A stretch of DNA of 63,979 nucleotides, the filler included, from Octopus bimaculoides (lineage: Eukaryota), in assembly GCF_001194135.2 (NCBI RefSeq). It is 7 parts of 7 records of this genome, joined end to end, with 100 filler letters (N's around TTAATTAATTAA, not from the genome) between each part and the next. Parts side by side here need not be neighbours in the genome. Positions count along the whole stretch, not along the records: positions 1 to 29,985 come from NC_068982.1; positions 30,086 to 36,648 come from NC_068994.1; 5 more parts are not named here. One strand, given 5' to 3'. This document shows, piece by piece, positions 17,954-36,793 of the stretch. The notes beneath the pieces are model-generated. The model was not told the origin of the DNA. It ran no database searches and was given only the letters and a program-made list of their open reading frames with translations. Each line of letters starts with the position of its first letter. Position 1 is the first letter of the stretch. The translations under genes were made by a program, and so were the position numbers.

Positions 17954-18920
17954 GTTATTATTATTATNNNNNNNNNNNNNNNNNNNNNNNNNNNNNNNNN
18001 NNNNNNNNNNNNNNNNNNNNNNNNNNNNNNNNNNNNNNNNNNNNNNNNNNNNNNNNNNNNNNNNNNNNNNNNNNNNNNNNNNNNNNNNNNNNNNNNNNNN
18101 NNNNNNNNNNNNNNNNNNNNNNNNNNNNNNNNNNNNNNNNNNNNNNNNNNNNNNNNNNNNNNNNNNNNNNNNNNNNNNNNNNNNNNNNNNNNNNNNNNNN
18201 NNNNNNNNNNNNNNNNNNNNNNNNNNNNNNNNNNNNNNNNNNNNNNNNNNNNNNNNNNNNNNNNNNNNNNNNNNNNNNNNNNNNNNNNNNNNNNNNNNNN
18301 NNNNNNNNNNNNNNNNNNNNNNNNNNNNNNNNNNNNNNNNNNNNNNNNNNNNNNNNNNNNNNNNNNNNNNNNNNNNNNNNNNNNNNNNNNNNNNNNNNNN
18401 NNNNNNNNNNNNNNNNNNNNNNNNNNNNNNNNNNNNNNNNNNNNNNNNNNNNNNNNNNNNNNNNNNNNNNNNNNNNNNNNNNNNNNNNNNNNNNNNNNNN
18501 NNNNNNNNNNNNNNNNNNNNNNNNNNNNNNNNNNNNNNNNNNNNNNNNNNNNNNNNNNNNNNNNNNNNNNNNNNNNNNNNNNNNNNNNNNNNNNNNNNNN
18601 NNNNTTTCTGTTTATTATCGATAATTAATTATATTATGTGGTTTAGTATATTTTATATCTCGTTATAGTAATTTACATTGATTTTTCGTTTTATGTATCG
18701 ATCAGGAAAGGCTAAATGACGTCGAAGGGATTTGAATTCAGAATGCAGAGTAGCGAAGACTGCACGTGGTATAAATATGGGAAAAGTAAAAAGAAACAAA
18801 GAAAATACACACTAGTTATAAAAGTAATGACTTATTTGTAAAAACAAAGATATATACATACAAATAAATGGTTTGAGGTGGAATTAAGAAGTATAAACAT
18901 CAATATCATGAGTCAATATA

Positions 18921-18960
18921 GAAAGTCATACCGGTTTCGTCATCGCTGTTCACTGACTTT
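18921..18960 (-). ncRNA. Minimal hammerhead ribozyme-like motif, G3:C8 variant
   Basis: AAAGTCA-GTGAACA-GCGATGAC-GAAA-CCGG-TA-TGACTTT: 7-bp stem I, palindromic ACCGGT stem III, GUA site, weak stem II. Confidence 0.55.
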
Positions 18961-20678
18961 GAATCAACACCGATTACCAAACTGGGTTTGGTCTAATAGT
19001 ACCTGAGTGAAAAGAGTGCATGCAACGGACGTAAGCGGTTTTGAAAGTGATGCATTTAAGTTAGTATGATTAATTGAGTATGAACGGTATATAGGATGTA
19101 TGAGGTTTAGGGGGATCATTGGTATGTGTAAGGTTAGTAGTGTCCTGTATTAAGTTGTGTGTTCATGTTAAGTTGTGTTTGTTATTTATTAATGAAAGTT
19201 GCTATGGCGGTTCCTAGGATATCTATCGGTGTGCTCTCTGACCTATATCTGTCTATATTGTAGGAAGCGGATTTGTTCTTTGTGAAGCGTTGTTTTTCTT
19301 ATGAGGAACATTCGTATTTGGCTTATATAGTGATTTCCGAAACCTGAACAGGTAGTAGCATGAATTATGTTTTCAAAGACACAAGTGAAATTTGAATTTA
19401 TCTTAAATCTTTCACCTCGTGTGAAGTGAAATTGTGTACCCTCCAAATGGTGAGGGCATGAGCCACAGTTAGGCCGCCCGCGTTTTTCTACTTTTGGTAC
19501 TGTAGCTAAGGAATATAGTCCTGCGCTGGTTAATATTTTTTCAATGATTTCGGTAGCATTTTGTTTTTGTGTGAGCCGAAATTTTTATTCATTGTTTTAT
19601 TTTGAGTAAGAATGGGTAGATTTTGGATGATGGCATTGAATGTCTCATTGTTTCTTGGGTTTTGTGTACTTTAAAATTTAGTGCAGTATTTCGGTTAACT
19701 TCCCTTAATGTTTGTATGTTTAATTCCTATGCTCGTTTAATCCCATCATCTATTAAAGCTGTTGAGTAATGTCTCCTGATTAGTATTGATTTAAGTTCAC
19801 GGAGTCTTAGTTCACGGGTATTGGTATCCAAAGCTATGGTACAAATTCTTTGCGCTGGATTATAAGTTATATCAATTTTTATGTGTTTGGGGTGGCATGA
19901 GTTGAATAATAGGTATTGTTTTGAATTTGTGTGTTTATAAAAGATGTGAGTTTCGATGTGTTTTTTGACTATTTTAATTAGGATGTTAAGCAAAGGAAGT
20001 TGTCTATTGCTGTATTATATGGTGAATTGTATGTTGCTATTGATATTCTTGAGTATTATTGTGAAATCGAGGTGTTTGTCCATGCTATTGTTCTAAAGTA
20101 TAAAGCAATCATCAAAGTATCTGTTCCAGTTCTTTAAATAGCAATAAAATGAGGTACTATATTTTTTGTTGTGATAATTGGTATATTTTAAGCTCTAGAT
20201 AACCCATTACAAGGGTCGAAATGACTGGAGCAGCTCGAGTTCCCATCGTGATTCCACATTTTTTTCGATCTTAAATTATGTCGAACATAAAGTAGTTTTT
20301 CTGGAGGGTAAATTGCAGTGCTGTGATTATGAAGTTGTGGGTGATGCGTCCTGCATCTCTTCTGGGCATTTTTCTAGTCAGAAAGTAATTACTTTTATAC
20401 CGTAATCGTATGGGATATTGGTGTACAAGTTCACCACATCGAATGATTCTAATAGGCTTCCTTCATTTATTGTTTCCGGTAGGTGTTTAAGCATATCTAA
20501 ATCATCACTGATGAAGCTACTGACCTTACTAATACCAGTTATCTCACTAATCCTCATACATTCCCTATATCGTTCATTCTCTATTAATCATATTAACCTA
20601 ATTGCATCACTTTCAGAACTGTTTACCTCCCTTCCATGCAATCTTTTCACTCAGGTACTATTAGACCCAACACCGTTT

Positions 20679-20719
20679 GAGAGTCAGTGAACAGCGATAA
20701 CGAAACCGGCATGACTTTC
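20679..20719 (+). ncRNA. Second copy of the G3:C8 hammerhead-like motif (probably inactive)
   Basis: GAGAGTCA-GTGAACA-GCGATAAC-GAAA-CCGG-CA-TGACTTTC; U16.1 is replaced by C. Confidence 0.45.
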
Positions 20720-21391
20720 TATATTGACTCATGATAATGATTTTTATACTTCTAAATTCCACCTCATATCATTTATTTGTATATATATATCTTTGTTTTT
20801 ATAAAAAAAAGCTATTACTTTTATACCTAGTGTGTATTTTCTTAGTTTCTTTTTACTCCCCTCATGTATATATATATATATATNNNNNNNNNNNNNNNNN
20901 NNNNNNNNNNNNNNNNNNNNNNNNNNNNNNNNNNNNNNNNNNNNNNNNNNNNNNNNNNNNNNNNNNNNNNNNNNNNNNNNNNNNNNNNNNNNNNNNNNNN
21001 NNNNNNNNNNNNNNNNNNNNNNNNNNNNNNNNNNNNNNNNNNNNNNNNNNNNNNNNNNNNNNNNNNNNNNNNNNNNNNNNNNNNNNNNNNNNNNNNNNNN
21101 NNNNNNNNNNNNNNNNNNNNNNNNNNNNNNNNNNNNNNNNNNNNNNNNNNNNNNNNNNNNNNNNNNNNNNNNNNNNNNNNNNNNNNNNNNNNNNNNNNNN
21201 NNNNNNNNNNNNNNNNNNNNNNNNNNNNNNNNNNNNNNNNNNNNNNNNNNNNNNNNNNNNNNNNNNNNNNNNNNNNNNNNNNNNNNNNNNNNNNNNNNNN
21301 NNNNNNNNNNNNNNNNNNNNNNNNNNNNNNNNNNNNNNNNNNNNNNNNNNNNNNNNNNNNNNNNNNNNNNNNNNNNNNNNNNNNNNNNNNN

Positions 21392-21441
<50 letters not shown>

Positions 21442-23300
21442 ACAACGGAAGTTATAATATTTATTGACGCAGTTCACTGCATTCACAGCTCATAAATTTT
21501 AATTTGGCAGGCAGTGATATATTATTGTTAGATTCTCTTCATTCACAGAGCAACAAACTAGCAAACCAAACGTGCTTTTCGTTTGAGCCAGGCAAATTTA
21601 TAGTCTTACGAATTATAGATATCAATACCAGCATATCGAAGTAAAAGGAAAGAGGCTTTTTTTTAGCCTTTGTTTTTTTTGTTTTTGTTTTTGTATCCTC
21701 TAAGAGCGACAGAAAAGTAAAAGAGTGTTATGCTAATCTTTCCGGAAGCGAAATAAACATGTCCGGAAAATATATTTTTGTTTATAGCATTTCTCACATG
21801 ATATAAAATAGAATATGAATAAAATAGTTACCCTTTAAGAACTCTGCCGAAGCATATAGCTTAGTAGTAAATTTAATCCTTAAATATATGAGTCATTGAG
21901 ATTTTACAATATAAAGCACATCCATTAACATCTAAAAACGAAATACATTTTATGTTTTACGCATATAGTTTCCTATTTTTAATAGTTCTACATTTTTCTA
22001 AGTGAACACTAAGATTGGCATGTGCCATTACATCAGTAGCAGTTCATTGTTTATACTTAAATATTTATACTCTTTCTACCTGTAATATACACTGTTTTGC
22101 TTTATCAATTTCATTATCAACAGAATGAAAGTCTATAGAAGTGTTGCTGCTTTTGCAAGAAATGAATAAAAGAAAAAAATGTTTGCTATATTTTGCAGTT
22201 TAATTACTATGGTCATATAAATATATCCATTTTTAGTCTTCCATCAAAACATTTTCAAGGCTTGTGTACAAACAGTTTATTCTCTTTAAGTTTATTGTAT
22301 ATTTCTTTTTATATTGTCTTATATAGTGTAAGTTTTAGCTATTTTATTCTTAATGGTTTGCAGTAAAAGAAATAAATTGGTGTCTCCTGAAGAAAGAAAG
22401 ATTGTTTAACTTTATATTATAGTGTCATAGTTTTAGAACCACCAGAGAAAACTAAAGTGTAAATAAATAGTTATTGGAAGATGTTCAGATGCCAAAACAG
22501 TGTTTGGTAATAAAAAGTTCAGAGTATAAAAATATATATGAAATAAAGGTAGGGTATAAGTAATCTCTACCACACATGATGCAGCATTTTCGTACACGTC
22601 AAGTAGAAATTTATTCAAACGAACAGTTAGAAGATTTATAAACTATTAATAATCTGTAATTGTGCTTGTCACCTTATAGAGATAATATCTTAGAAATGTG
22701 CTTCTTTTCAACTTTTCACTCATTTCTTTATTGTTTTAAGTCCAGTTTGTGTGATATAGAAAATTTACGTATGCGGCAGGAGCATCAAGACAGATGTGAC
22801 CAGACATGTGAGTCTTAATTGGGTTTGTAGAAGGTCAATGACTGGTTCAGTTTACGCAATATTTATGCAGGACCTAAGATGGTCTCCTGGTGTTTGTTGT
22901 TCAATTTTACCAATATCATCTATGTGAATTCCTTTCAGAGGTGGCAAGTAAAGATGAAGTAGAAGACTGTGTCTTTCGTGTATGTAGTTATTGCATGTAG
23001 GAAATTAAAAAAAATATATATATTAAAGTATTATTAAAATAATGTCATATTGATATTGAAAATATGACTGGTATACAGTTTAGAATTTATAACCATGCAT
23101 CAATAGTTATCAATAATAGTAATATATGTCATTTATCAGTTCGAAGTATCGATTATAGTCAACGGCTTCCTTTTGCATGGATTAATTTTCAGTTCACAGT
23201 CACACGTCATTATGTTATTATTGTTATCATCCAAGTCATTGAATCTTGACGTTAATTCTCAGGTTTCATGATAAAATCTACTTTAAATGTTTTATGTATG

Positions 23301-23335
<35 letters not shown>

Positions 23336-24241
23336 NNNNNNNNNNNNNNNNNNNNNNNNNNNNNNNNNNNNNNNNNNNNNNNNNTATTAATTATGCTTAG
23401 AGTAATTTCGACAAAACTTATAATCATATGTTCCGTAGATATTTTAAAATTGTATTAACTGAAGAAATAAAGTACATTTTTCTTTATCTGTTGATTTCTT
23501 AGTTGTTTGAGATTTTTCATGATTAAACGTCTGTCCTCCCAGTAAAGGCTGTTTTCCCTTTTTTACAAATGCCGAATATATATATATATATATATATTAT
23601 TTTACACTCCAAGATTTAAAATTAAAAATAAAAAATTCTAATGTAGGATTAACAATTTGAAATTTAATATAATTCGGCTTTACTATAAGCGTTTATGTAT
23701 TTCGATGGAAGTTAATTGTGAATAAGTTAGGGGAAAAATGATAGCGTTGTCACTTCTACTGATCAATACACAAGATCAGAGAGAGTGTGCATAAAGACAG
23801 GATTGCTAGAATATAATATTTATGCTTATTATCAACATAACCTTTGGTAACTATTCCCTTTAAAGGTATAAATTTGCAACGGTGTATAATTCATGTAAGT
23901 TTTCATGGCACTTTAACAATATCACGTAAGTCGAACATGTGTTCGACTCAAAGAAGAAAAACGAAATTCTATAAAAGAAAGCTGACATCGCAAGAAAACA
24001 AATTTATAAATATTCTATCGGTAAACAAGAAAAAACACAATATCGCCAAAATATAATTTCATTTTTAACGTTACCTTTATTTTAATATCTTTTCTCACAT
24101 AGAGGTTTTTTTTTCTTTCTGTGTTTTTTCTATTATTATATTTTACAATTCGTACATTCTAGCTCCCTCCCACTCTTCCGAATGAAACACGTCTACGTAA
24201 GTTGCAATTAGCCTTTAACTAATATGTGCGCGTGCATGTGA

Positions 24242-24272
<31 letters not shown>

Positions 24273-24967
24273 ATTTGTGTGTGTATGAGTACGTGTATGC
24301 TTAATTATGTGAATATGATTGCGACATTCAGAAGATGAAAAATACCGTGCTCCAAATAAAAAATAAAGCTGCATATTTTAAAATCTGTTTTGTTAGGCAT
24401 TTTCCCCCCGTAGCAATTCATATATTTCCAATCTATTCTTAATTGTTTACTTCAAAACCAAGTAATGATAGTAGTGAATTCTAATATTATATATACTGAA
24501 ATTTCCTCTAAGCAAAACCCAAAATCCGCCTTTTCTCTTTAATTATTTTGAAATATTTAGAGATTTACAACTTACAGAAGACTATGTTCTAAAAATTCTT
24601 TTCTAGCTTCTGGGTATAAATAGCAATCGATTATTTGAACGAAAAATTTGAAAGTACAATAAGTACATTTACAATCACTTCGAATCACTTCGATTTACAA
24701 TTATAGTTTAGTACTTTCTCTTTTTGCAATGACACTTAAACAGGCAACTGTTATATAGACGTGATTGAACTTTATCAGGTAGAAACTCGCATAAAAATAT
24801 TTTTTTTCGATTGACTTCGGGCTTATTGAACGAAACACTCATATGTATGCTGTATTTACAAAACTAATATATATATATTTATATATATATACTTGAGCAG
24901 CGTATATAAAATAGTAGAGTATAAGTCAATTAAGCTATTGTAGAATGAGAACTCAGAAAACGCTTTT

Positions 24968-25017
<50 letters not shown>

Positions 25018-26089
25018 TAGCCACGAGCTAGCATCTAATCTGATTTATATTTGCATCTCAATACATGCAACCCCGCCTCCGGTATAGACCAATGCGATAA
25101 GCGTCATTTTCTAGAATAGGGTAAAATATTTGTTCTTGTGATAAAAACACCAGTGCTCAAGGGGAGCAACTCTACTATCACTATTTACAATGCCTTTGCT
25201 ACTTTCCAAGACGAAGGTATCAGTTACTTTAACTATTACTTTTGCAGCATGTAGCTGCAAGTAACAATCAGTTTTATATTATCCTTGACGCACTACTGGC
25301 ATGGTTAAACAAAAATTTACATTCTACTCGAATATGCTTGAGCACCAGGTATTTCTATTAGGAGAATCTTATTTAATGTTTATAACATAAACGTCTATTT
25401 TGAATATATTTATCAGTTTAGTTATACGGTAGTACTTGAAGGTAGAACATTGTTTTGTAACATTATATGTATTTTATTGTTTTCTATTTATTAACTAATA
25501 TTACTGCAGGGAATGCAGTTTGTTTACATTTAAATAGCGATCAGTAAATACTTCAATGGTTTTTTTCTTCGTGTGGATATGAACCTCAACTTACAAGGCG
25601 AATGTATCTGAACCTGATAATTTTAATGTTATTCTCTTTGTATTGAATGTTGAAAGACAACAGTGATAAGCTTAAACGTTAACTCTGCTATTTCGTTCAT
25701 GATTGTACACTTACGTATGTGGAATAAGATATCTCAAGTGTTGTTACTCATATTTCTCTTGATATGTATTGTTGTTCGTCTGAAATATTTATACCCGATA
25801 GAAAAGGCCACCCGTCTCAATATAGAAAGATCAGGATACATAGTTTAATGGTATTGAGGAACGAAATTTTACACATATCAACTTTACAAATGTTGAAACT
25901 ATTCTTCATTTGGAAATCTTTAACGCTACGATCTAATAAGATTATCTTCCCTGCAATATGCCCAAATGACGATGTGTTTATTGGTTAATCTCTGGATGGT
26001 TGTAAACATGTGATCAATACACTATTACCCGAGTTTTTCTATCATTATTGTCACAAGATATATACTGATGAATTTTCTCTCTTGGTTAC

Positions 26090-26400
26090 AAATCACTTGT
26101 ACCTTCCCCCTGACTCGAAACTCACAGCCTCTTCATACAAGCGCTGATGTGCTTCTAAGAATAAGGAAGTCTTTCTTTGGTTGTAGCTTTTATCCTCAAC
26201 TGTCAAACTTTGGAACTCTCATTCAACTTATTGTTTTCCTCCTTTTTATGACCTGAGCTCTTTGAAGCCTAAAGCCATTCCTTTCGTCCTAATTTCTCCT
26301 TCTTCATAGTCCCTTACACTAAGTTACTTCTCGCCTTGTTTGAGATTTTCTTATAAAGGAAAGGCGATTAAATAACATTCCTTCATAGGCAATTAGATAA
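26090..26400 (+). mobile_element. CR1/Jockey-type LINE 3' end relic
   Basis: Frameshifted SF.P...KLWNSL....F...YDL..LK pattern, typical of the CR1-group ORF2 C-terminus. Confidence 0.5.
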
Positions 26401-28049
26401 CAAGTAATTTTATCATAATTATAGAATTTATCGTAATTGTGTCAGATCTATTGCTTTGTACGTTTAATCGTCCTCAGTCTCTCTTCGTTACGTTCAAGAA
26501 ACCACGCATTTCCAAAGTAATTTACGTGAATACATGGTGTTCTTAAGTGTTTCCACTGGAGGCGCATGTAATTGCGTTTCTTTTAACTAGGCTCTGTATC
26601 TAGAGAAGCTGAAATTAGTATGAACAAACTGAAATTAGAATAAACATAGAAATACGATGAACATTTATGTAACATATAAAGAAGAAGTGAGTTCAAATGA
26701 CAGTTTTATAAAAGAAAAACCAATTTCATATCTATTAAATTGAAATTGATATACTTTTCTAAACTAGTAAAGATTAACTTGGAAATGTTTGGAAATGCTA
26801 TTTCACTTTCTGTGAAATTTCATTATTATAGTTGTTAGGAAACACGAATAAATCCCAGTGAAATAACTATGTGAATGGGACCCTGCCTAGAAACTATACT
26901 GTACAAGTTACATTCTTATGCATTTTAAGCACCGATACTGCAGAGGCCTACGAGTGTAAATTCATTAAATAATGTAGCACAGTAATATTATTCAAGAAAA
27001 AAAAACATTTTTAATTCTTTCTACATCACATTAGTTTACTGATGATATTAACCTTATATAGAAAACGTATTATTAAGATATAATTCAATGGAAAACATTA
27101 TAATTACATTTTACAAGTAAATTACCTGAATCTAATATGATATAAAATGACGACCATATAATTTATTAGAATGTATAATTTCTCTTGCAATTTAAGACGT
27201 GTTTTCAGTTAAACATGGATGAAATATATTAATGTAGTTTATTTAATCTTCGAAGTATATTAACAGTTAATAAGCAACAATTTTTACGAGAGGAAAAAAT
27301 GGTAAAAATACCGAAAGAATTGTAGAAAAAATATTTTAATTCCATTCTAAATATGTTAGACTTCTGGCATAAAACCCTGCCAAGCATGCATTAGAATACA
27401 TAAAGAGAATCAGAAAAAGAAATTAATGGTTGGGGTAGTTGGAATTCCTATCTGTCTTCCTGACACCTATTGCAAGCGCAAGGAAGTTGCTTTGATTAAT
27501 GATACACTCTTATGTTATTCGTACAAGAAATTTAACATAAACGTGATTCACTTCTGCAATGCAAAAGCCAAGAACACTTATTACACAAATGATTTATAAC
27601 TTGCTAGTAGGAACTATGCATGTGTCTAACACTGACGTTAGAAGAATTACTAAAGCGTTCTACTATTAGTGTGGATTTTCTTCTAGAGTATTCGAGTTAT
27701 TTTAACGAATCTAGATTACTATAAAGGCTATGCATGCAGATGCTTAGATAACATATTAAAAGTTTTCTAACATACGAAAACTTGTGTGAAACATTAATCA
27801 CCTGGATTAAACTGTCAATCCTTCCTAATAATAAACAAACTTTAGTGACAATTCTGCAAGTGATGAAATGAAATAGTAAATGTCTATGTTTCTTGAACCA
27901 CACTGATTAATACAGATCATACCACAAATTGTGTTTTATTTTGCGGGAGGAATATGGTGGATGTTCTAACGAATGCAGGCCCCTGAGAATAATGGGGTCG
28001 ATGGAATGAATACTAAGTTTCAACGTCTATATGGAAATATAGGCAAAAG

Positions 28050-28870
28050 GGATGTTCCAGACTGTATATATCTAGGTGGGAAATGTGTAAATGAGCTTAA
28101 TACAGACTCACCGGATTTGTGATGAGACAGACAGTAAAGGTAATGTGCAAGGCATTGGGTTAGAATAATTGTAGATACATTGCAGCATGCTACGTCATAG
28201 GATACTAAAAGTAAATGTGTCTGTAGTCAGAAGAATAGAGAATGGACCTTTGTTTGACATTTCTTTACCTGTAAAATTAGTAATATTTTCGCGTTGTAAT
28301 TAGTTTTGCTCGCAGTTTGCTTGCAAGATTTGTGTTGAGATATCGTGTGGGGTTTGTGGAGGGTAATTTAGCGAAGGTGAGCTGTATTTTGAGGAATTTT
28401 AATTGTCTTTTGCTTATGATTATTTTGTGTATTACGAATTCTTGTTTTATTATTGGGTCCTTTCTTAAAAGTCAAATGGTGAGGTGGATAATGTTGTAAA
28501 CCTCTGCGCTTTGGGGGTTGTATTTTGTAATAAATTGTAGAGTATTGGGCATATCTGAAGTTAATTTTTCCTTGTTCATGAATATCTATTGCCTTGGTAT
28601 GTTCTATTCTGTTCTCCATTAACATTGATGGATGTTGTCTTTCAAGCAGTATTTGTTTTAATTTTATTACGAGTTTCTTACTTTGAAACAATTGTGCAGA
28701 TTCTTCTTGCAATATTAAACAGAATATTAGTATCCGTGTGTTTGGAATGGCATGAGGAAAACATCAGGTTGTGTTTAGAATCTGCTGGATTATAATGAGT
28801 TTCCGTTTCCGTTTCCATGTTTGTGTCCATTTTGATGATTATAATGTCCAGGAATGCCATTGTTTATGCT
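28050..28870 (-). mobile_element. Penelope-like element relic
   Basis: FLDIIIIK..ETHYNPADSKHNLMFSSCHSKH..NIARRICTIVS matches the PLE RT thumb and parallels the 19727-19993 ORF. Confidence 0.85.
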
Positions 28871-29884
28871 GTTAATTATGGCAAAATGTATGCGTCAGTA
28901 GAACCAGTCAGATATCTAAGCAACATTTCCAGTTTTCTAGTAAATATTTATAATAATCCAAGCCGTATTTTAATTTAAATTGTTCATATATCTGGACCTC
29001 CATGTATGCCATGACCAAATTGGCATAATTTGGAGTAAATTTTGCAACCATCTCAATCCCAGATATTTGTTTGTAAATGTTGTCATTAAACTATTTAAAA
29101 ACAATTTAAAAACAATTGCTTACAGGGATGGATTTTAATAATTCTGTGATGGAACATATGTGCAAAAATTAAATCCCACAAATCTCAAGTCTTCCTAAGT
29201 TTTAATACCACAGATGAAACACGATTAGACATTCATACGAAAATACAAACCACGACCGAATTAATATCAACATTATATATACGCCAACAGCTACTCAAAC
29301 GAAAACACGTCCCGCCATATTGAATTTAGGTGGCCAAATCTGGGCACAATCATAACATTTCCTCGCATGACGCTAATGCACGAATTTAGTGAAGACCAAA
29401 ATTTTATGCCTACATAGATTCATCCTCTTGATATAATAAATTTGCAAAGTTTCGATTTTTGCAACTCGCAACAGTCACATGTTCTAAAAACAGGACAGTT
29501 TTAACTTTTGGGTTATTTTTCTTGCCTTGACTTATGTACAACAGATAAGTTCCCAAATTTGTGACTCTTTCCACTTTACTTTTATTCAAACAATACCACA
29601 ATTCAAACACGAATAAAGAAAATATATTTGCACAAAGGTACAAACCCCAACCTAAATAACATCAACAAAACACAGCAACACTAATCCGCGGAAACTAAAA
29701 AAAGGCCTAACAGAATTTAATGATTACATACAAATATTTCCTGTCTAGTTTACCATTTGACAGAGCAAACTGAGCCTTGCTTGCCTAGGAGTGTCATTAG
29801 ATAAGTTCATTTAACCGTGTCAGCCTCAGCTTTCGACTCCAAAATATTGTTACATGACATTAATGCACGCAGCGGAGAACTTAC

Positions 29885-29913
29885 AAAATTATTTCCGCTA
29901 TGTTTCCTCTCGC
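29885..29913 (-). other. Candidate 29-nt exon
   Basis: Minus strand: tactttattccag|GCGAGAGGAAACATAGCGGAAATAATTTT|gtaagt, strong splice signals on both sides. Confidence 0.3.
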
Positions 29914-29933
29914 CTGGAATAAAGTAGCATAAT

Positions 29934-29985
<52 letters not shown>

Positions 29986-30029
29986 NNNNNNNNNNNNNNN
30001 NNNNNNNNNNNNNNNNNNNNNNNNNNNNN

Positions 30030-30041
30030 TTAATTAATTAA
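30030..30041. other. Assembly spacer TTAATTAATTAA inside an N gap
   Basis: Identical 12-mer between N runs at 30030, 36693, 42518, 45196, 49198 and 57008. Confidence 0.9.
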
Positions 30042-30085
30042 NNNNNNNNNNNNNNNNNNNNNNNNNNNNNNNNNNNNNNNNNNNN

Positions 30086-30169
<84 letters not shown>

Positions 30170-30180
30170 GTAATAATAAT

Positions 30181-30360
30181 AACATCGAAAAATACCCTAG
30201 GAATGAGAATCCAGGTTCGAAATTTCCCCAAGACACCTGATGAAGGGTGGAGGGTATATCAGCCGAAACGTTGTGTTAACAACAAAGAAGATGAGGACAG
30301 ATGTCCGTCGAATGTAAATAATGTACATAATTCCTAATCTTTTAAATATTGAAAAGTATT
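30181..30360 (+). mobile_element. Short non-coding Penelope-derived repeat following (AAT)n
   Basis: Carries a minimal hammerhead of PLE type; no ORF. Confidence 0.6.
30232..30277 (+). ncRNA. Minimal type I hammerhead ribozyme
   Basis: Stem I GACAC/GTGTT, core CTGATGA (30237-30243), stem II GGgTG/CAGCC with one mismatch, GAAA (30265-30268), palindromic ACGT stem III, GUU site. Confidence 0.8.
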
Positions 30361-30820
30361 CGTTTGTTGAATTCTGTCTGACAAAATTATAATTTGGTAA
30401 CTGTTTGAGAAATATAGATTAGATGGAGTTTCATCTAACACAAACTCAGTGGTATGTTGAAGATGCTTACCTGTAATTATATCAGTTACGATATCAGATC
30501 CCGCCAGGATAGACTGTGCTTCCCTTTATTCGAGATCGATCAAATAATTACTAGTTGAATAAGTACCAGGGTTAAAAAAATAAGTATACGGGTCAAATAA
30601 TTCGAATAAAATTCTAAGGTGGTGCCCCAGCATGGCCGCACTTTAATGACTGAGAGAAGTAGAAGAATAAAAGAGTAAAAGAGTACATTTAGCTTGAGAT
30701 AATCTATCATACTGTTCCCTTAAAACATCTGACTCTACGTCTATGTTATGATATCAAAGGAGATACGCGAATTTCTAATACTTTGGTCTCGTTACTCATA
30801 TTCTTAATTCTTGTCCTTAA

Positions 30821-31342
30821 GGCGGCGAGCTGGCAGGAACGTTAGGACGTCGAGTGAAATGCTTATTGGTATTTCGTCTGCCACTGCGTTCTGAGTTCAA
30901 ATTCCGCCGAGGTCGACTTTGCCTTTCATCCTTTCGGGGTCGATAAATTAAGTACCAGTTGCGCACTGAGGTCGATGCAATCGACTTAATCCGTTTGTCT
31001 GTCCTTCTTTGTCCCCTCTATGTTTAGCCCCTTGTGGGCAATAAAGAAATAAGAAACGTTAGCACGCCGGGCGATATGTTTAGCGGTATTTCGTTTGTCT
31101 TTACGTTCTGAGTTCAAATTCCGCCGAGGTCGATTTTGCCTTTCATCCTTTCGGGGTCGCTAAATTAAGTACCAGTTGCGTACTGAGATTAATCCATTCG
31201 ACTGGCCCCCTCTCCAAACATTTCGGGCCTTATGCCTAGAGTAGAAAAGAATATATTAAAGGCGGCGAGCTGGCAGAAACGTTAGCACGCCGGGCGAAAT
31301 GCTTAGCGGTATTTCGTCTGCGTTGTGCCTAGATTAGAAAAG
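30821..31342 (+). mobile_element. Composite SINE family A trimer with 15-bp TSD
   Basis: Three head-to-tail units. AATTCTTGTCCTTAA at 30806-30820 and 31343-31357. Confidence 0.85.
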
Positions 31343-31925
31343 AATTCTTGTCCTTAACAATTGTAAAGTGAAAAATATTTGTGGATTCATAAGTTTTGGG
31401 GATCACTTATTGCTTGGTTTTCTCCATTAGTAACGTAATTAAGCTTGGACACGGCTTAGATATTGATGTCTAAATTTTTGGGAGAATCTCACGATGACTA
31501 ATCCATTTCTATTAACAGACACAGGATAACTAAGAACGACTTATGATAGAACGTTGTATGATAGAACAAGTGGAGCTACAAAGAAAATATGGTATGATAT
31601 TTGGTTATTTCTATTTTTGGTCAGCTTTTAAATCATCTCTTCGTGGTTTAAAATTTAGTTTTCTTCCTTCTGTGATTGATCAATATAAGTATCAGTATTA
31701 TTGTAGGAAAGGAAAATGTAACTTCAATAAGTGTCAATGGGGTTTTAAAAAAACAATTTGCAAACGAAAATGCTCTTAACTTATTAACCATCTGGTATGT
31801 GCATTGAAAGTATAAGACACACAGAAGAATAATCTTTAGGAAAGTAAACAAAATACAAAAGGGAATTATTCTTAAAAAAGATTGAACAGATAATGTGCGT
31901 GTGTGTCTGTGTGTATGTGTATATG

Positions 31926-31968
<43 letters not shown>

Positions 31969-32103
31969 GTATGTGTATAGATATGTGTGTCTCTGTGTCT
32001 GTGCGTCTGTGTGTATGCGTGTTAGTGTGTGTGACTGTCTGTGCATCTGTGTGTCTGTGTGTGTATGTGTTTGTGTCTGTGCGTCTGTATGCATGTATAT
32101 ATG

Positions 32104-32146
<43 letters not shown>

Positions 32147-32196
32147 GTATATATGCATATATACAAATATATTTGTGTGTGTGCGTGCGCGCGCGC

Positions 32197-32236
<40 letters not shown>

Positions 32237-33039
32237 AATATTTAAGCAAAACTCGAAAATAGTACAAACGTTGAAAATACAATGCCGTGAAAAGCAGAAT
32301 CCTTAGAAAAGTACAATTATCTTTCAAATCAATTCAAGAAGATGGACATTTACTGCATCAAGCTTATGGCAGAATCTTATGGGGAACGGGCGATCGGGAG
32401 AGGATGAAAATAATATCTGAAATTTGATATTTTTCCATGCCATTAAAACGAACGCTGACATAAATGGGAAGAAAATACTACTTAACATAAAGATGAATTT
32501 TGAAAAGTCTTGAAGAACGTCAAGAAACTTCAATAATTAAATAAATCGTTTGAATATAAGTGTTAGCAACAATGTTGTAGAACTCACCTGGTTCATGTCT
32601 ATGATTGACATCAAGTAAGTCAGTCGTACAGAATGTTGCAAATTATGGGGAATAATTTATCTGGTATTGTTATGCTTTATATATTACATGCTTTTCTACT
32701 GAATAGGTGCTGCTGAAATTACAGTGCGTTCAATATATTCACATGTGTTATTTATCCCATCAAATACGCTAATCTTTCTGCATGACTTTTCCCACTGAAG
32801 CTAAATCCATCAAATCAATTAACAACGAATGAACGAACGAGTTACAGAGTTTCAACGTGAACATATGAACTGCTAGAAAATGGTGGCCATATCTCCTTCA
32901 ACTTTACAGATTATCCTCTTAAGAAAAGTAGGACATATTAGATAAGAAATGGATTGGTCATAGGGAGAACAGGATTGTTCTGATAGGTCTACTTCATCAC
33001 AGCTAAATCGGGGCGGGTTAAACACAAGCACCAGAACTA

Positions 33040-33170
33040 ATCGTGGTACTCCGTCGGTTACGACGACGTGGGTTCCAGTTGATCCAATCAATGAAACAGG
33101 CTGCTCGTGAAATTGAAGTGCAAGTAGCTGAGCACTCCACAGACACGTGTACGCTTAACGTAGTTCTCCC
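33040..33170 (+). mobile_element. SINE family B
   Basis: Reverse-complement match to 42640-42812; a degenerate copy lies at ~40905-41040. Confidence 0.75.
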
Positions 33171-34284
33171 TCCGATATAAATTATATTTTTTTAAATAGT
33201 ATATCCTTAAAAGATGTTATCTCTGCCCGAATGTTGCGGTAAATTGCCTTCCAAATAAGTATTTACATTCAATATCATATATAGCTTTTCTAACTTAATA
33301 CTTCTTCTATTGCATATAATAATTGCTGTTAAAGTATATATATTCCCTTTAATATAAGAATCATTTGATATAAAGGGCAGATATTTTATACGCATGTTAT
33401 TGGCATACTTTTTTCATGTAGTATCAAAACTAAATTTAGTTATGCATTAAGAAAAAAAATAAACGAGTATCTTTCAGTGTACAATTTGCCTGCTAGAAAT
33501 GCCATCTGCCGCCCCTCACCAATTCACATCCAACGAGATTTATGGAAGGGTAGATCGGTTTTCCTATATTTCAAATGGCATTTGTTCAGAGATCTATCTA
33601 TAAGATCGACTGCAACGAAATATTGCTGGAACAATTTCATAGCACATTGAGGAAGTACTTTTGCAGAGAAATGTTATTAACATATTAACCAGTTGGTATA
33701 TACATTCCGAATAAGACACGTTGAAGAATTATCTTCGAAAATGTAAACAAAATGCAGAGGGGAATTGTTCATAGAAAAGATAGCTTAGATAATACCTGCA
33801 TGCACATATTCATACACACACGCGCACACACACACACATACACACTCACACACACACACATATATATATATATATACATATATAGATAGATAGATGGATA
33901 TATATANNNNNNNNNNNNNNNNNNNNNNNNNNNNNNNNNNNNNNNNNNNNNNNNNNNNNNNNNNNNNNNNNNNNNNNNNNNNNNNNNNNNNNNNNNNNNN
34001 NNNNNNNNNNNNNNNNNNNNNNNNNNNNNNNNNNNNNNNNNNNNNNNNNNNNNNNNNNNNNNNNNNNNNNNNNNNNNNNNNNNNNNNNNNNNNNNNNNNN
34101 NNNNNNNNNNNNNNNNNNNNNNNNNNNNNNNNNNNNNNNNNNNNNNNNNNNNNNNNNNNNNNNNNNNNNNNNNNNNNNTATATATATACACATACATATA
34201 TACATGTATATATATATATGTGTGTCCATGTATATATATATATGTGTGTGTGTTTGTTTGTGTGTGTGTGTGTATGTGTGTGTA

Positions 34285-34322
<38 letters not shown>

Positions 34323-34814
34323 TGTGTGTGCGTGTGTGTGTGTATACTACAAACGCGGAAAATACTGTAACACAAAAAAAATAGAGTTGAAAAAGTACAA
34401 GAATTGTTAAGGGAATATAAAATATTTAAAAAATGCTATTTTCTGCAGCAAGTAATGATAGAATGGTATAGGAAAGAGAATATTCGAGAAAGAGCAGAAA
34501 AGAAATACACAATTTCTGAAATTTCGAATTTTCATAGCATAAAAATGAATGCTTGGAGAGTTAAATAGATTTAAGACAAAGATAGTTTCACAACGTGAAG
34601 TAAATAACTGTGGAGAGATCTCTTGGAAAGAAACAATATTCTCTCACTATAAACGTATATATGTATATTTTAATTGTTTAATAACAGTGTTAGCAGCAAT
34701 CTTGTGAACACCAAAATTATTACATCTTTACAGATATTTTATTGTTAGTTTTAAAACCTAGTTCAATTTTGACAAAGATAGAACTAAGAATAGGCGCCAT
34801 TTTAATAATGAGCA

Positions 34815-35255
34815 TATAGGAGTGGCTGCGTAGTAAGAAACTTCGTTCCCAGTCACATGCCTCCGGTTTCAGTTCCATTGCGTTGCACCATGGGCAAGTG
34901 TCTTGTATTTATACCATAGCGCAAAGCCGACCAAAGCCTTGGGAGTGGAACTGATAGATGGAAACTGAAAGAAGCCAGTTGCATATGTGTGTATACGTGT
35001 TCGTGTGTGTGTGTGTGTGTGTATGTGTGTGTGTGTGTGTGTCTTTGTGTCGGTGTTTGTCCCCTACCACTAATTAACAATTGGTGTCTGTGTATTTAGG
35101 TCCCCGTAAATTAACGGTTCGCCAAAAAAACAGCGATAGATTAAGTACCAGGCTTGAAAAATATATAATAACTACTGGGATCCATTCGTCCGTCTCAAAA
35201 TTCTTCAAAGCATCGTCCCAGGATGGGCACAGTTTAATTACAGTAGGAAAAGATA
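34815..35255 (+). mobile_element. SINE family C (tRNA head, internal (TG)n, 3' tail)
   Basis: Collinear with 44000-44410. Confidence 0.8.
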
Positions 35256-35630
35256 AAGGATATCATACTTTCTCCTAAAATAATGTATCCCTGATAACAC
35301 TAGCTAATAGATTTCTTCATATCTCGGTTGGATGAGGTTTTGATGGTAAGTTCCATGCATCACTGGTATTTCTAGCAGGCAGACTGTCCACATAAAGTCC
35401 ATGTAATTGTTGATTTTCGATAGTTAATTTTTATTCACGTTTTGATGCTTCTATAAACAAATATGCCAATACTAACGTAATTATACAAATGTAATTATAT
35501 ACGCATGCGTATGTGAGTGTGAGAGTGTGTTTCTATAAATTATTTACTCTTGAATCTAAAGATATATTAAAGTACATCTATTTATCTATCTCTATCTCTC
35601 AATCTATCTATCTATATATTCATACATGTA

Positions 35631-35688
<58 letters not shown>

Positions 35689-35692
<4 letters not shown>

Positions 35693-36465
35693 AAAGAAAA
35701 ATATATAAAAACTCACAGGAGGTTTGTATAATAAAATTTATGCTAATATTAATATCATTAATGAAACAAAGAGTTGTATTACAACATTATATGATAGAAT
35801 AAACTACGAGTACCGGTTTTGCGTCTTACGCTTATCAAACTTTTTCAAAGTCTCAGTTTTAACTCATGAGGACGCCATTTTTGTTGTTGACAATAATTTT
35901 TGCAGTCAAGGGATGTAACTCTTCAATTTGTCTGAAACATATTGACGTATGTGCTAAACAATTGCAACCACAGTTCTATATATATTCTTTCTGTACAAAT
36001 TTGCTGACTGGATCTCAACACAAGCTCGTCTTAATAAAGAAGCGTCATTCCTCCAGAAATATAAACAAGAAACGAACATTAATTCATTTTAGTAACAACC
36101 AACCCCCACTAGAACAGAACAACAATCAATTATTCTCTCCACCCTTGAAATATTTGTAAATAACCCCTTAAAACTTGTGTATATATGTCACATATCTGTA
36201 TACATTAAGAATATGTCCAAAGATCCTAACAATACTTTGAAAGTAACTTGTAATTTTCAGATAAATTGAAGACTTACGAAAATTATTGTCCTCGAATTAA
36301 AACTGAGACTTTGGAAGTTTTTTGATAAGCGTAAGACGCGAAACCGGTACTCCTAGTTTATTATATAATGTTGTAATACAACTCTTTGTTTCATTATGAT
36401 ATTAATATTACCGTAAATTTTATTATACAAACATCCTGTGCGTTTTTACATATTTTTCTTTCTTA
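35689..36465 (+). mobile_element. 5'-truncated Penelope-like element with inverted pseudo-LTR
   Basis: ~185-bp inverted repeats at 35689-35873 and 36288-36465. The interior reads like the end of a GIY-YIG domain (KHIDVCA..FYIYSF..RLNKEASFLQKYK). Confidence 0.8.
36314..36352 (+). ncRNA. Minimal hammerhead-like motif, U3:A8 variant
   Basis: TTGATAA-GCGT-AAG-ACGC-GAAA-CCGG-TA-CTC: perfect 4-bp stem II and palindromic ACCGGT. Stem I junction disturbed by a T run. The inverted copy at ~35808-35843 has GAAA->AAAA. Confidence 0.55.
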
Positions 36466-36793
36466 AATAACTACAACCACGTGTAAACAAGATCTGAAAC
36501 ATTTGTGTTTACTGTACTCGTTTATCATTTTGTCTACGCTTTGTTTGCAATGTCCTGTACTCAGATATGCATCTATATATACAGGTAGATTTAAGTATGT
36601 ACATACATGTACGTATATATGCTTATATTCATTTATTATTTGTATTATNNNNNNNNNNNNNNNNNNNNNNNNNNNNNNNNNNNNNNNNNNNNTTAATTAA
36701 TTAANNNNNNNNNNNNNNNNNNNNNNNNNNNNNNNNNNNNNNNNNNNNTATATATATATATATATATATTTACACACACACACACGTATGTTA

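Follow-up and report, generated by a model that had tools for sequence, protein, structure and literature searches.

When the catalytic core of a hammerhead ribozyme departs from CUGANGA, is it decayed, or can the pair between its positions 3 and 8 be exchanged for another one in nature? A stretch of Octopus bimaculoides DNA (NCBI RefSeq assembly GCF_001194135.2; 63,979 nucleotides including filler, in its whole length referred to as the window) raises this question, as it holds five minimal hammerhead motifs with three different cores. All five sit in fossil pseudo-long terminal repeat (pseudo-LTR) ends of Penelope-like retroelements. We consider it likely that the swapped-pair motifs descend from ancestral hammerheads that would have cut slowly, as dimers, and probably with the assistance of a protein. 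The finding is real and partly known, and it is broader than the original prediction made from the window's sequence, since the genome also has an A3:U8 form in abundance and a second family with G3:C8.

Five window motifs and the state of the 3:8 pair

The window is a pack of separate records, with the 18.9–20.7 kb element on contig C2 and the other two motif regions on C14. Position 3 of the five motifs lies at 18953 (−), 20687 (+), 30237 (+), 35838 (−) and 36322 (+), all at the places originally predicted, and the cores read GUGAACA at 18953 and 20687, CUGAUGA at 30237, and UUGAUAA at 35838 and 36322. Every core position is undamaged in the G3:C8 motif at 18921..18961 (− strand; G3 at 18953, C8 at 18948), which has a stem I of 7 bp, a stem-loop II of 8 nt closed by G10.1–C11.1, the palindrome ACCGGU and a predicted cut after A17 at 18929. 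The second G3:C8 motif, at 20679..20719 (+ strand; G3 at 20687), runs antisense to the open reading frame (ORF) and is damaged by U16.1>C at 20710. The canonical-core motif at 30229..30280 (+ strand; C3 at 30237) has a bulged base after A9, a 5-bp stem II with one mismatch in the window copy, the palindrome AACGUU and a predicted cut after U17 at 30272. As for the U3:A8 motifs, the one at 35803..35846 (− strand; U3 at 35838), again antisense to the ORF, has lost the general base through G12>A at 35820, and the one at 36310..36357 (+ strand; U3 at 36322), within the sense pseudo-LTR 36201–36469, has a 4-bp stem II, ACCGGU and A17 at 36349, together with a U-run expansion of three extra U that spoils stem I. 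Three of the five copies (20687, 35838 and 36322) are damaged, in agreement with the earlier caution that single copies carry inactivating changes.

The five motifs were the top five of ten window matches at E ≤ 5 to a covariance model of 19 hand-picked copies, which include the 18953 copy and relatives of the other window motifs. A relaxed structural descriptor found two of them (18953 and 30237), compared to 0.33 matches per shuffled window (30 shuffles); at this rate a single motif proves little, and it is the family data that carry the case. Among 147 Rfam matches at E ≤ 1 in the window, none belonged to a hammerhead family, so that the canonical copy at 30237 was missed as well.

Where the query did not fix positions 3 and 8, or where they were taken from aligned copies, the G:C family had G3:C8 in 27 of 33 copies (28 of 34 rows in a hand count), the U:A family had U3:A8 in 28 of 32, and the 30237 family had C3:G8 in 37 of 41. 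Copies with C3:G8 were absent from the G:C and the U:A family (0/33 and 0/32), and the literal CUGANGA, with C3 and G8, occurred only in the 30237 family. G3:C8 and U3:A8 are therefore family states and not decayed CUGANGA, as had been proposed from the window; the accompanying sequence-level check, for a canonical family consensus or an unconserved pair, turned up neither. Around the pair, U4, G5, A6, A9, G12, A13, A14, A15.1, U16.1 and H17 (A, C or U) reach majorities of 0.81–1.0 in all three families, with violations in the single copies 20687 and 35838, and U4, G5, A6, A9, G12–A15.1 and U16.1 are invariant in all 19 hand-picked copies. The same copies show covariation, with all four pair types at 3:8 and a covarying stem I (0/500 shuffles). 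Motif conservation within families was higher in the G:C family, which we did not use as evidence because the loci had been chosen by a pattern over the motif.

The families also differ in their stems. Stem I adjoins the core with 7 bp in the G:C family; in the window's U:A family it does so only with one extra U looped out as a bulge. This U, between stem I and position 3, is present in 32 of 32 copies, usually along with an A·C mismatch in stem I, and the U:A window family is the least canonical of the three. The fixed extra U and A17 (window 36310–36357, L041, L057) could pair with each other and block the cut, or the U could act as a 2a-type insertion. Stem II consists of 1 bp and a 6-nt loop in the G:C family and of 4 bp in the U:A family, in both without the bulged base after A9 that is present at 30237 and in the second G:C family; G10.1–C11.1 is found in 17 of 19 aligned rows, the two exceptions being rows with this bulge. 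The palindrome of stem III is ACCGGU in the G:C and U:A families and AACGUU at 30237. The stem II of about 1 bp, noted beforehand as a caveat to the G:C form, is indeed there, yet it is a feature of the clade, seen also with a canonical core, rather than a weakness.

Genome-wide, we searched a pattern in which the ACCGGU palindrome was fixed and position 8 was free, using the reversed pattern as control. C, G or U at position 3 gave 1503 matches (control: 101), C or G alone 203 (control: 62) and A 632 (control: 43), for a combined 2135 matches with any letter at position 3 versus 144 in the control. The partners at position 8 were counted by hand in the first listed rows by position, which include chance matches and a few double registers. 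U3 was accompanied by A8 in 84 of 91 rows and A3 by U8 in 88 of 100, and G3 by C8 in 38, U8 in 14, A8 in 14 and G8 in 7 of 73 rows. C3 was accompanied by G8 in only 3 of 27 rows and by A8 in 23, the latter being U3>C decays of U:A families. Scaled up, we estimate that the canonical core occurs in fewer than 1 in 100 motifs of the ACCGGU type. In 40 fetched loci, stem I was seen for most families, and loop II differed in sequence among at least four G:C subfamilies. A stem-loop II of 8 nt with a closing G–C pair occurs in G:C, A:U and U:A families. A candidate G3·U8 wobble family was rejected, as it turned out to be an A3:U8 family with scattered A>G copies. A further U3:A8 motif, downstream of the ORF in L156, L163 and L164, is followed by GAAAA and a longer palindrome, and its stem I is weak.

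A second G3:C8 family combines a long stem I with a 5-bp stem II (5–6 bp across copies) in which a base bulges out after A9. A pattern with positions 3 and 8 free matched it 640 times in the genome versus 2 times in controls, and 65 of the first 100 listed rows were G:C. Some rows that led to it came from a G3:C8 pattern with a 2-nt stem III, which itself was not enriched genome-wide (144 matches versus 303 in controls). The repeat is about 200 nt long, non-coding and often folded back on itself (L224–L247 at about 1500–1700, L204, L212–L219); no Penelope ORF turned up beside those copies that were checked, so that a Penelope element is a putative carrier. An older branch with a different stem III palindrome retains C8 in 8 of 10 decayed copies and G3 in only 5. 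Roughly 9 of 100 rows of the same search belong to an old repeat with similar stems and the core UUGAUGA (U3·G8 wobble; L225, L231, L232, L235 and L248, at about 1500), which could represent an intermediate with a wobble pair or else a family in decay.

Carrier elements and the likely order of pair changes

The 18953 motif lies in the 3′ pseudo-LTR (18756..19125, − strand) of a 5′-truncated Neptune-type Penelope-like element; over 374 columns, this pseudo-LTR shares 88% identity with another copy in the genome. It is downstream of a broken ORF remnant at 19195..20524 (− strand), in which tblastn recognized a reverse transcriptase (RT), a cysteine-rich linker and a GIY-YIG endonuclease. The remnant corresponds to residues 168–620 of the homologue P0001 at 42–44% identity, with stops and frameshifts. 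Pfam gave no significant match for the window's ORF scraps or the family pieces, and their identity was established through homologues: P0001 matches RVT_1 (E = 1e-7) and GIY-YIG (E = 6e-4, below the cut-off), and the sister-family piece L113 passes the GIY-YIG cut-off. An RT with a GIY-YIG endonuclease C-terminal to it in one ORF is what the Neptune-type assignment calls for and what is seen here. On the other side of the remnant follows an inverted upstream copy of the pseudo-LTR (20527..20870, + strand), which shares 83% identity with its counterpart arm in an alignment of 358 columns. The U3:A8 element at 35.7–36.5 kb is built in the same way, with an inverted pseudo-LTR copy at 35672..35937 (− strand; arms 88% identical); only the last ∼45 endonuclease codons (35935..36069, + strand; 80% identity to a family ORF piece in L052, E = 3e-14) are left between its arms.

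In both elements the paired motif copies are on opposite strands, which means that one transcript holds only one sense hammerhead and that the window's own pairs cannot dimerize from a single transcript. A tandem pseudo-LTR–ORF–pseudo-LTR arrangement of the window's G:C family is present on contig C17, where two same-strand motifs are 3020 bp apart, each with one damaging change. The motif at 30237 is in a solo 3′ end of an abundant Penelope/Poseidon-type family (30171..30349, + strand, after a (TAA)n tract), 94% identical to another copy; in L089 and L100 this end comes after an endonuclease remnant whose homologues have RVT_1.

The original prediction had treated the three families as unrelated, which is wrong for two of them. 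A CX4CxxC linker (CX2-5CxxC type) is found in P0001 and L052, with the first Cys lost in the window copy, and linker motif and domain order assign the G:C and U:A families to one Neptune-type clade, with the qualification that Nematis shares the linker motif. The 30237 family is distant: its homologue P0003 is only 26% identical to P0001 and lacks the linker motif. The kinship of the G:C and U:A families makes the case for covariation stronger, since their sequences can be aligned and placed on a tree.

Among thirty long elements chosen by protein alone, an A3:U8 lineage came to light that is sister to the G:C family of the window. Its pseudo-LTR and that of the window align at 71% across 255 nt, and one of its stem I base pairs is lost on both strands. 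There are two separate A3:U8 lineages in this Penelope clade (L142, L148, L166, L186, L191, L179–L198); a single A:U clade was rejected by the approximately unbiased test (p-AU = 3e-7). One of them is nested inside G3:C8 families and looks younger. The main tree was built from 39 of the 54 protein rows, namely those with ≥150 residues after removal of one duplicate; 37 of the 39 were labelled, and decayed copies received the state of their family; the labels of L149, for which a nearer U:A motif fits better, and of L157 were dropped as doubtful. Position 3 changed three times on this tree, and so did position 8.

A first metagenome scan with one protein gave no match, and seven pattern matches in viral contigs included none with a stem I. 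Among 127 homologous loci from metagenome and metagenome-assembled genome (MAG) contigs, we found 32 hammerheads, all in sense to the ORF, compared to 0.4 in shuffles, with 20 C:G, 10 U:A, 2 U:G and no G:C or A:U pairs. L280 and L325, in the sister group, combine CUGAUGA with the same 8-nt stem-loop II and ACCGGU, suggesting that so small a stem II goes back to their common ancestor and can go together with a canonical core. In a quick tree including these outside homologues (37 rows, 36 labelled), both positions changed seven times, and this genome's elements formed one clade (Shimodaira–Hasegawa-like approximate likelihood-ratio test, SH-aLRT, 100) adjoining those two C:G carriers (88). In this tree the pair likely set out from the canonical state of relatives with an equally tiny stem II in other hosts and changed in the order C:G, U:A, A:U, G:C and again A:U. 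L280 is also an intact metagenome element whose pseudo-LTRs are direct and identical; its hammerheads (at 57 and 3756) combine this mini layout with the canonical core. Other hammerhead-bearing Penelope-like elements came up in bacterial MAGs and symbiont assemblies (L360–L365, L372; P0055, P0074); these are most likely contamination from host animals, labelled as bacterial GIY-YIG proteins.

Elsewhere in the window, a further decayed Penelope RT/linker remnant at 28355–29090 (− strand) is 38–55% identical to P0001, with no hammerhead found nearby. Three to four copies of a GC-rich repeat with ∼217-bp spacing occupy 30819–31345, and a short fragment of it recurs at 44361–44402 and 54624–54664.

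Probable cleavage and its alternatives

In hammerheads, the general base is G12 and the acid is the 2′-OH of nucleotide 8, not its base (PMC6257768), so the base at position 8 can change as long as it still pairs with position 3. The ancestors of the families described here would have been active elements with minimal hammerheads and a swapped, still Watson–Crick 3:8 pair in their pseudo-LTRs. In a read-through transcript of a tandem, two hammerheads could pair via ACCGGU into a 6-bp stem III, and the dimer would then cut after GUA, or in sister families after GUU or GUC, and so set free a unit-length RNA. Cutting would be slow and dimeric, probably assisted by the element's protein, with selection acting on master elements and inserted copies decaying neutrally. 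A precedent for such assistance is the hammerhead of the Anolis Poseidon element PAc, which cut only with its protein and was partly rescued by C3G/G8C (PMC11167929). When the 18953 copy was cofolded with itself, the lowest-energy dimer was predicted to have the stems I and III of a double hammerhead, including a 6-bp intermolecular stem III, and several A:U copies are predicted to fold as complete double hammerheads. A G3–C8 pair reportedly performs less well when nucleotide 17 is C than when it is G, and a G3–C17 mispair was suggested (PMC3884650); A17 is found in 34 of 38 G3:C8 rows, which avoids this mispair. A general avoidance of 3–17 mispairing was rejected, because U3 occurs with A17.

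Several observations weigh against slow dimeric cleavage, or against the family history on which it is based. In vitro, the C3G/G8C swap rescued cleavage only partially (PMC8495972, PMC11167929), and insertion was unimpaired in hammerhead mutants (PMC11167929). The predicted 18953 dimer contains a competing 2-bp hairpin that uses G12, the predicted dimers of many other representatives are not hammerheads, and monomers fold no better than shuffles (z from −1.3 to +0.5). RNA reads cross the predicted cut with no pile-up of ends, at low depth and in ∼6% of three RNA runs, whose organism may be a related species and whose kind of library could rarely show cut ends. G3 lacks C8 in 35 of the 73 rows, reflecting decay of other families and chance matches (62 of 203 being the control level). 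Furthermore, the covariation score was built on hand-picked copies, the tree labels were assigned by hand and two of them dropped, and the branches ordering A:U and G:C are short and unstarred (SH-aLRT 87–93).

Part of this would also be expected if the hammerhead fold had been kept as a signal for protein binding or folding, for example in ribonucleoprotein assembly or the start of reverse transcription, with cleavage negligible or dispensable and weak 3:8 pairs tolerated for that reason. The unchanged in vitro insertion of hammerhead mutants, with no reads ending at the site (PMC11167929), points this way, as do Naiad elements that multiply without canonical hammerheads (PMC8557442), the lack of end pile-ups in the RNA reads here and the near absence of canonical C3:G8 from the clade. 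A mere binding signal does not readily explain why G12, G5, A6, A9, A13, A14 and U16.1 are fixed in 19 of 19 aligned subfamily copies despite the turnover of loops and stems, or why N17, left free in protein-selected copies, is A, U or C but in no case G, in keeping with the cleavage-site rule. We rank slow dimeric cleavage above a fold retained for protein binding alone, which we regard as unlikely.

Improbable, in our view, is that the window's G3:C8 family was a ribozyme being lost, killed by two substitutions and the collapse of stem II to one pair and replaced by the younger A3:U8 branch. Such a loss would account for the longer end branches of G:C rows (0.07–0.63) relative to nested A:U rows (0.04–0.20), for the smaller number of G3 matches (about 150) than of A3 (632) or U3 (1300) matches, and for the C·A at the second stem II pair. 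However, at least four G:C subfamilies with differing loop II keep the pair, the 8-nt stem-loop II is likewise found alongside U:A, A:U and C:G, and an independent-looking G:C family (640 matches) has a full stem II. Finally, decayed or chance look-alikes of CUGANGA, with a 3/8 pairing copied by coincidence from a few founders, are very improbable and largely refuted here: the relaxed descriptor does match shuffled windows, copies of one master are not independent and most window copies are damaged, but the quick tree's seven inferred changes each involve both positions and are each complementary at the family level, the genome matches far outnumber the controls, and the motifs have a fixed sense-strand place downstream of the ORF.

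Beyond slow dimeric cleavage, we tentatively propose, at somewhat less than even chance, that one lineage walked the 3:8 pair through all four Watson–Crick forms, and that G3:C8 and A3:U8 are working, unpublished ribozymes, perhaps propped up by their own protein, with some 2,000 motifs in this genome invisible to CUGANGA searches. The data trace covariation of the tertiary 3:8 pair along a tree of natural elements, where the pair was previously based on crystal structures, mutants and one natural swap. They indicate that selection maintains the geometry of the active site in Penelope elements, including forms that perform weakly when made as laboratory mutants. This bears on what Penelope ribozymes do and whether the element's protein assists, a question for which the sister families offer a natural series of ribozymes. 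Hammerhead descriptors should allow any complementary 3:8 pair; if the proposal is true, many Penelope families called ribozyme-less may carry swapped-pair motifs.

Comparison with published hammerheads and retroelements

Lünse, Weinberg and Breaker reportedly described short-stem-III hammerheads, their association with Penelope elements and their cleavage as dimers in 2017. Natural G3:C8 and A3:U8 forms were not found in the literature searched by text, a search that leaves out variants shown in figures only or written with a colon as well as the alignments of Lünse 2017. Likewise, the portions consulted of PMC6765202, PMC6155905, PMC6466107, PMC10085705 and bioRxiv 10.64898/2026.07.22.740005 contain no precedent for either form.

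The carrier elements resemble the Neptune clade as described in PMC8557442, with an RT followed by a GIY-YIG endonuclease, a CX2-5CxxC linker, an inverted 5′-truncated pseudo-LTR and a (TA)n neighbourhood. The motif searches of that study used the string 'cuganga', which the variant cores of the window fail.

U3:A8, in turn, is already published both in nature and in Penelope elements (PMC3088659, PMC4209133). Among the minimal hammerheads of Penelope elements, that of Schistosoma mansoni Cercyon is a U3–A8 variant (Cervera and De la Peña 2014, PMC4209133). The motifs described here share with this class the place in the pseudo-LTR, the palindromic minimal stem III, G10.1–C11.1, opposite-strand pairs in truncated copies, U3:A8 and the dimer model, and the 30237 motif fits the class outright. 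Unlike in that class, stem II of the ACCGGU clade has 1–4 bp and no bulge after A9, the U:A family of the window has its extra U before position 3, and G3:C8 and A3:U8 are absent from the paper's text and Figure S3 representatives as far as these were covered. Perreault et al. (2011, PMC3088659) reported a natural covariation from C3–G8 to U3–A8, a stem II of two or one bp, and 2a and 2b insertions before position 3. These variants are matched here by U3–A8, by the one- or two-bp stem II and by the insertions between stem I and position 3; in the parts of that study covered, C3–G8 to U3–A8 is the only exchange, whereas all four Watson–Crick pairs occur here, three of them within one retroelement clade. 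Engineered C3G/G8C hammerheads (PMC11167929, PMC8495972, PMC3884650) carry the same swap, but what is a laboratory mutant there is the majority state of natural multicopy families here.

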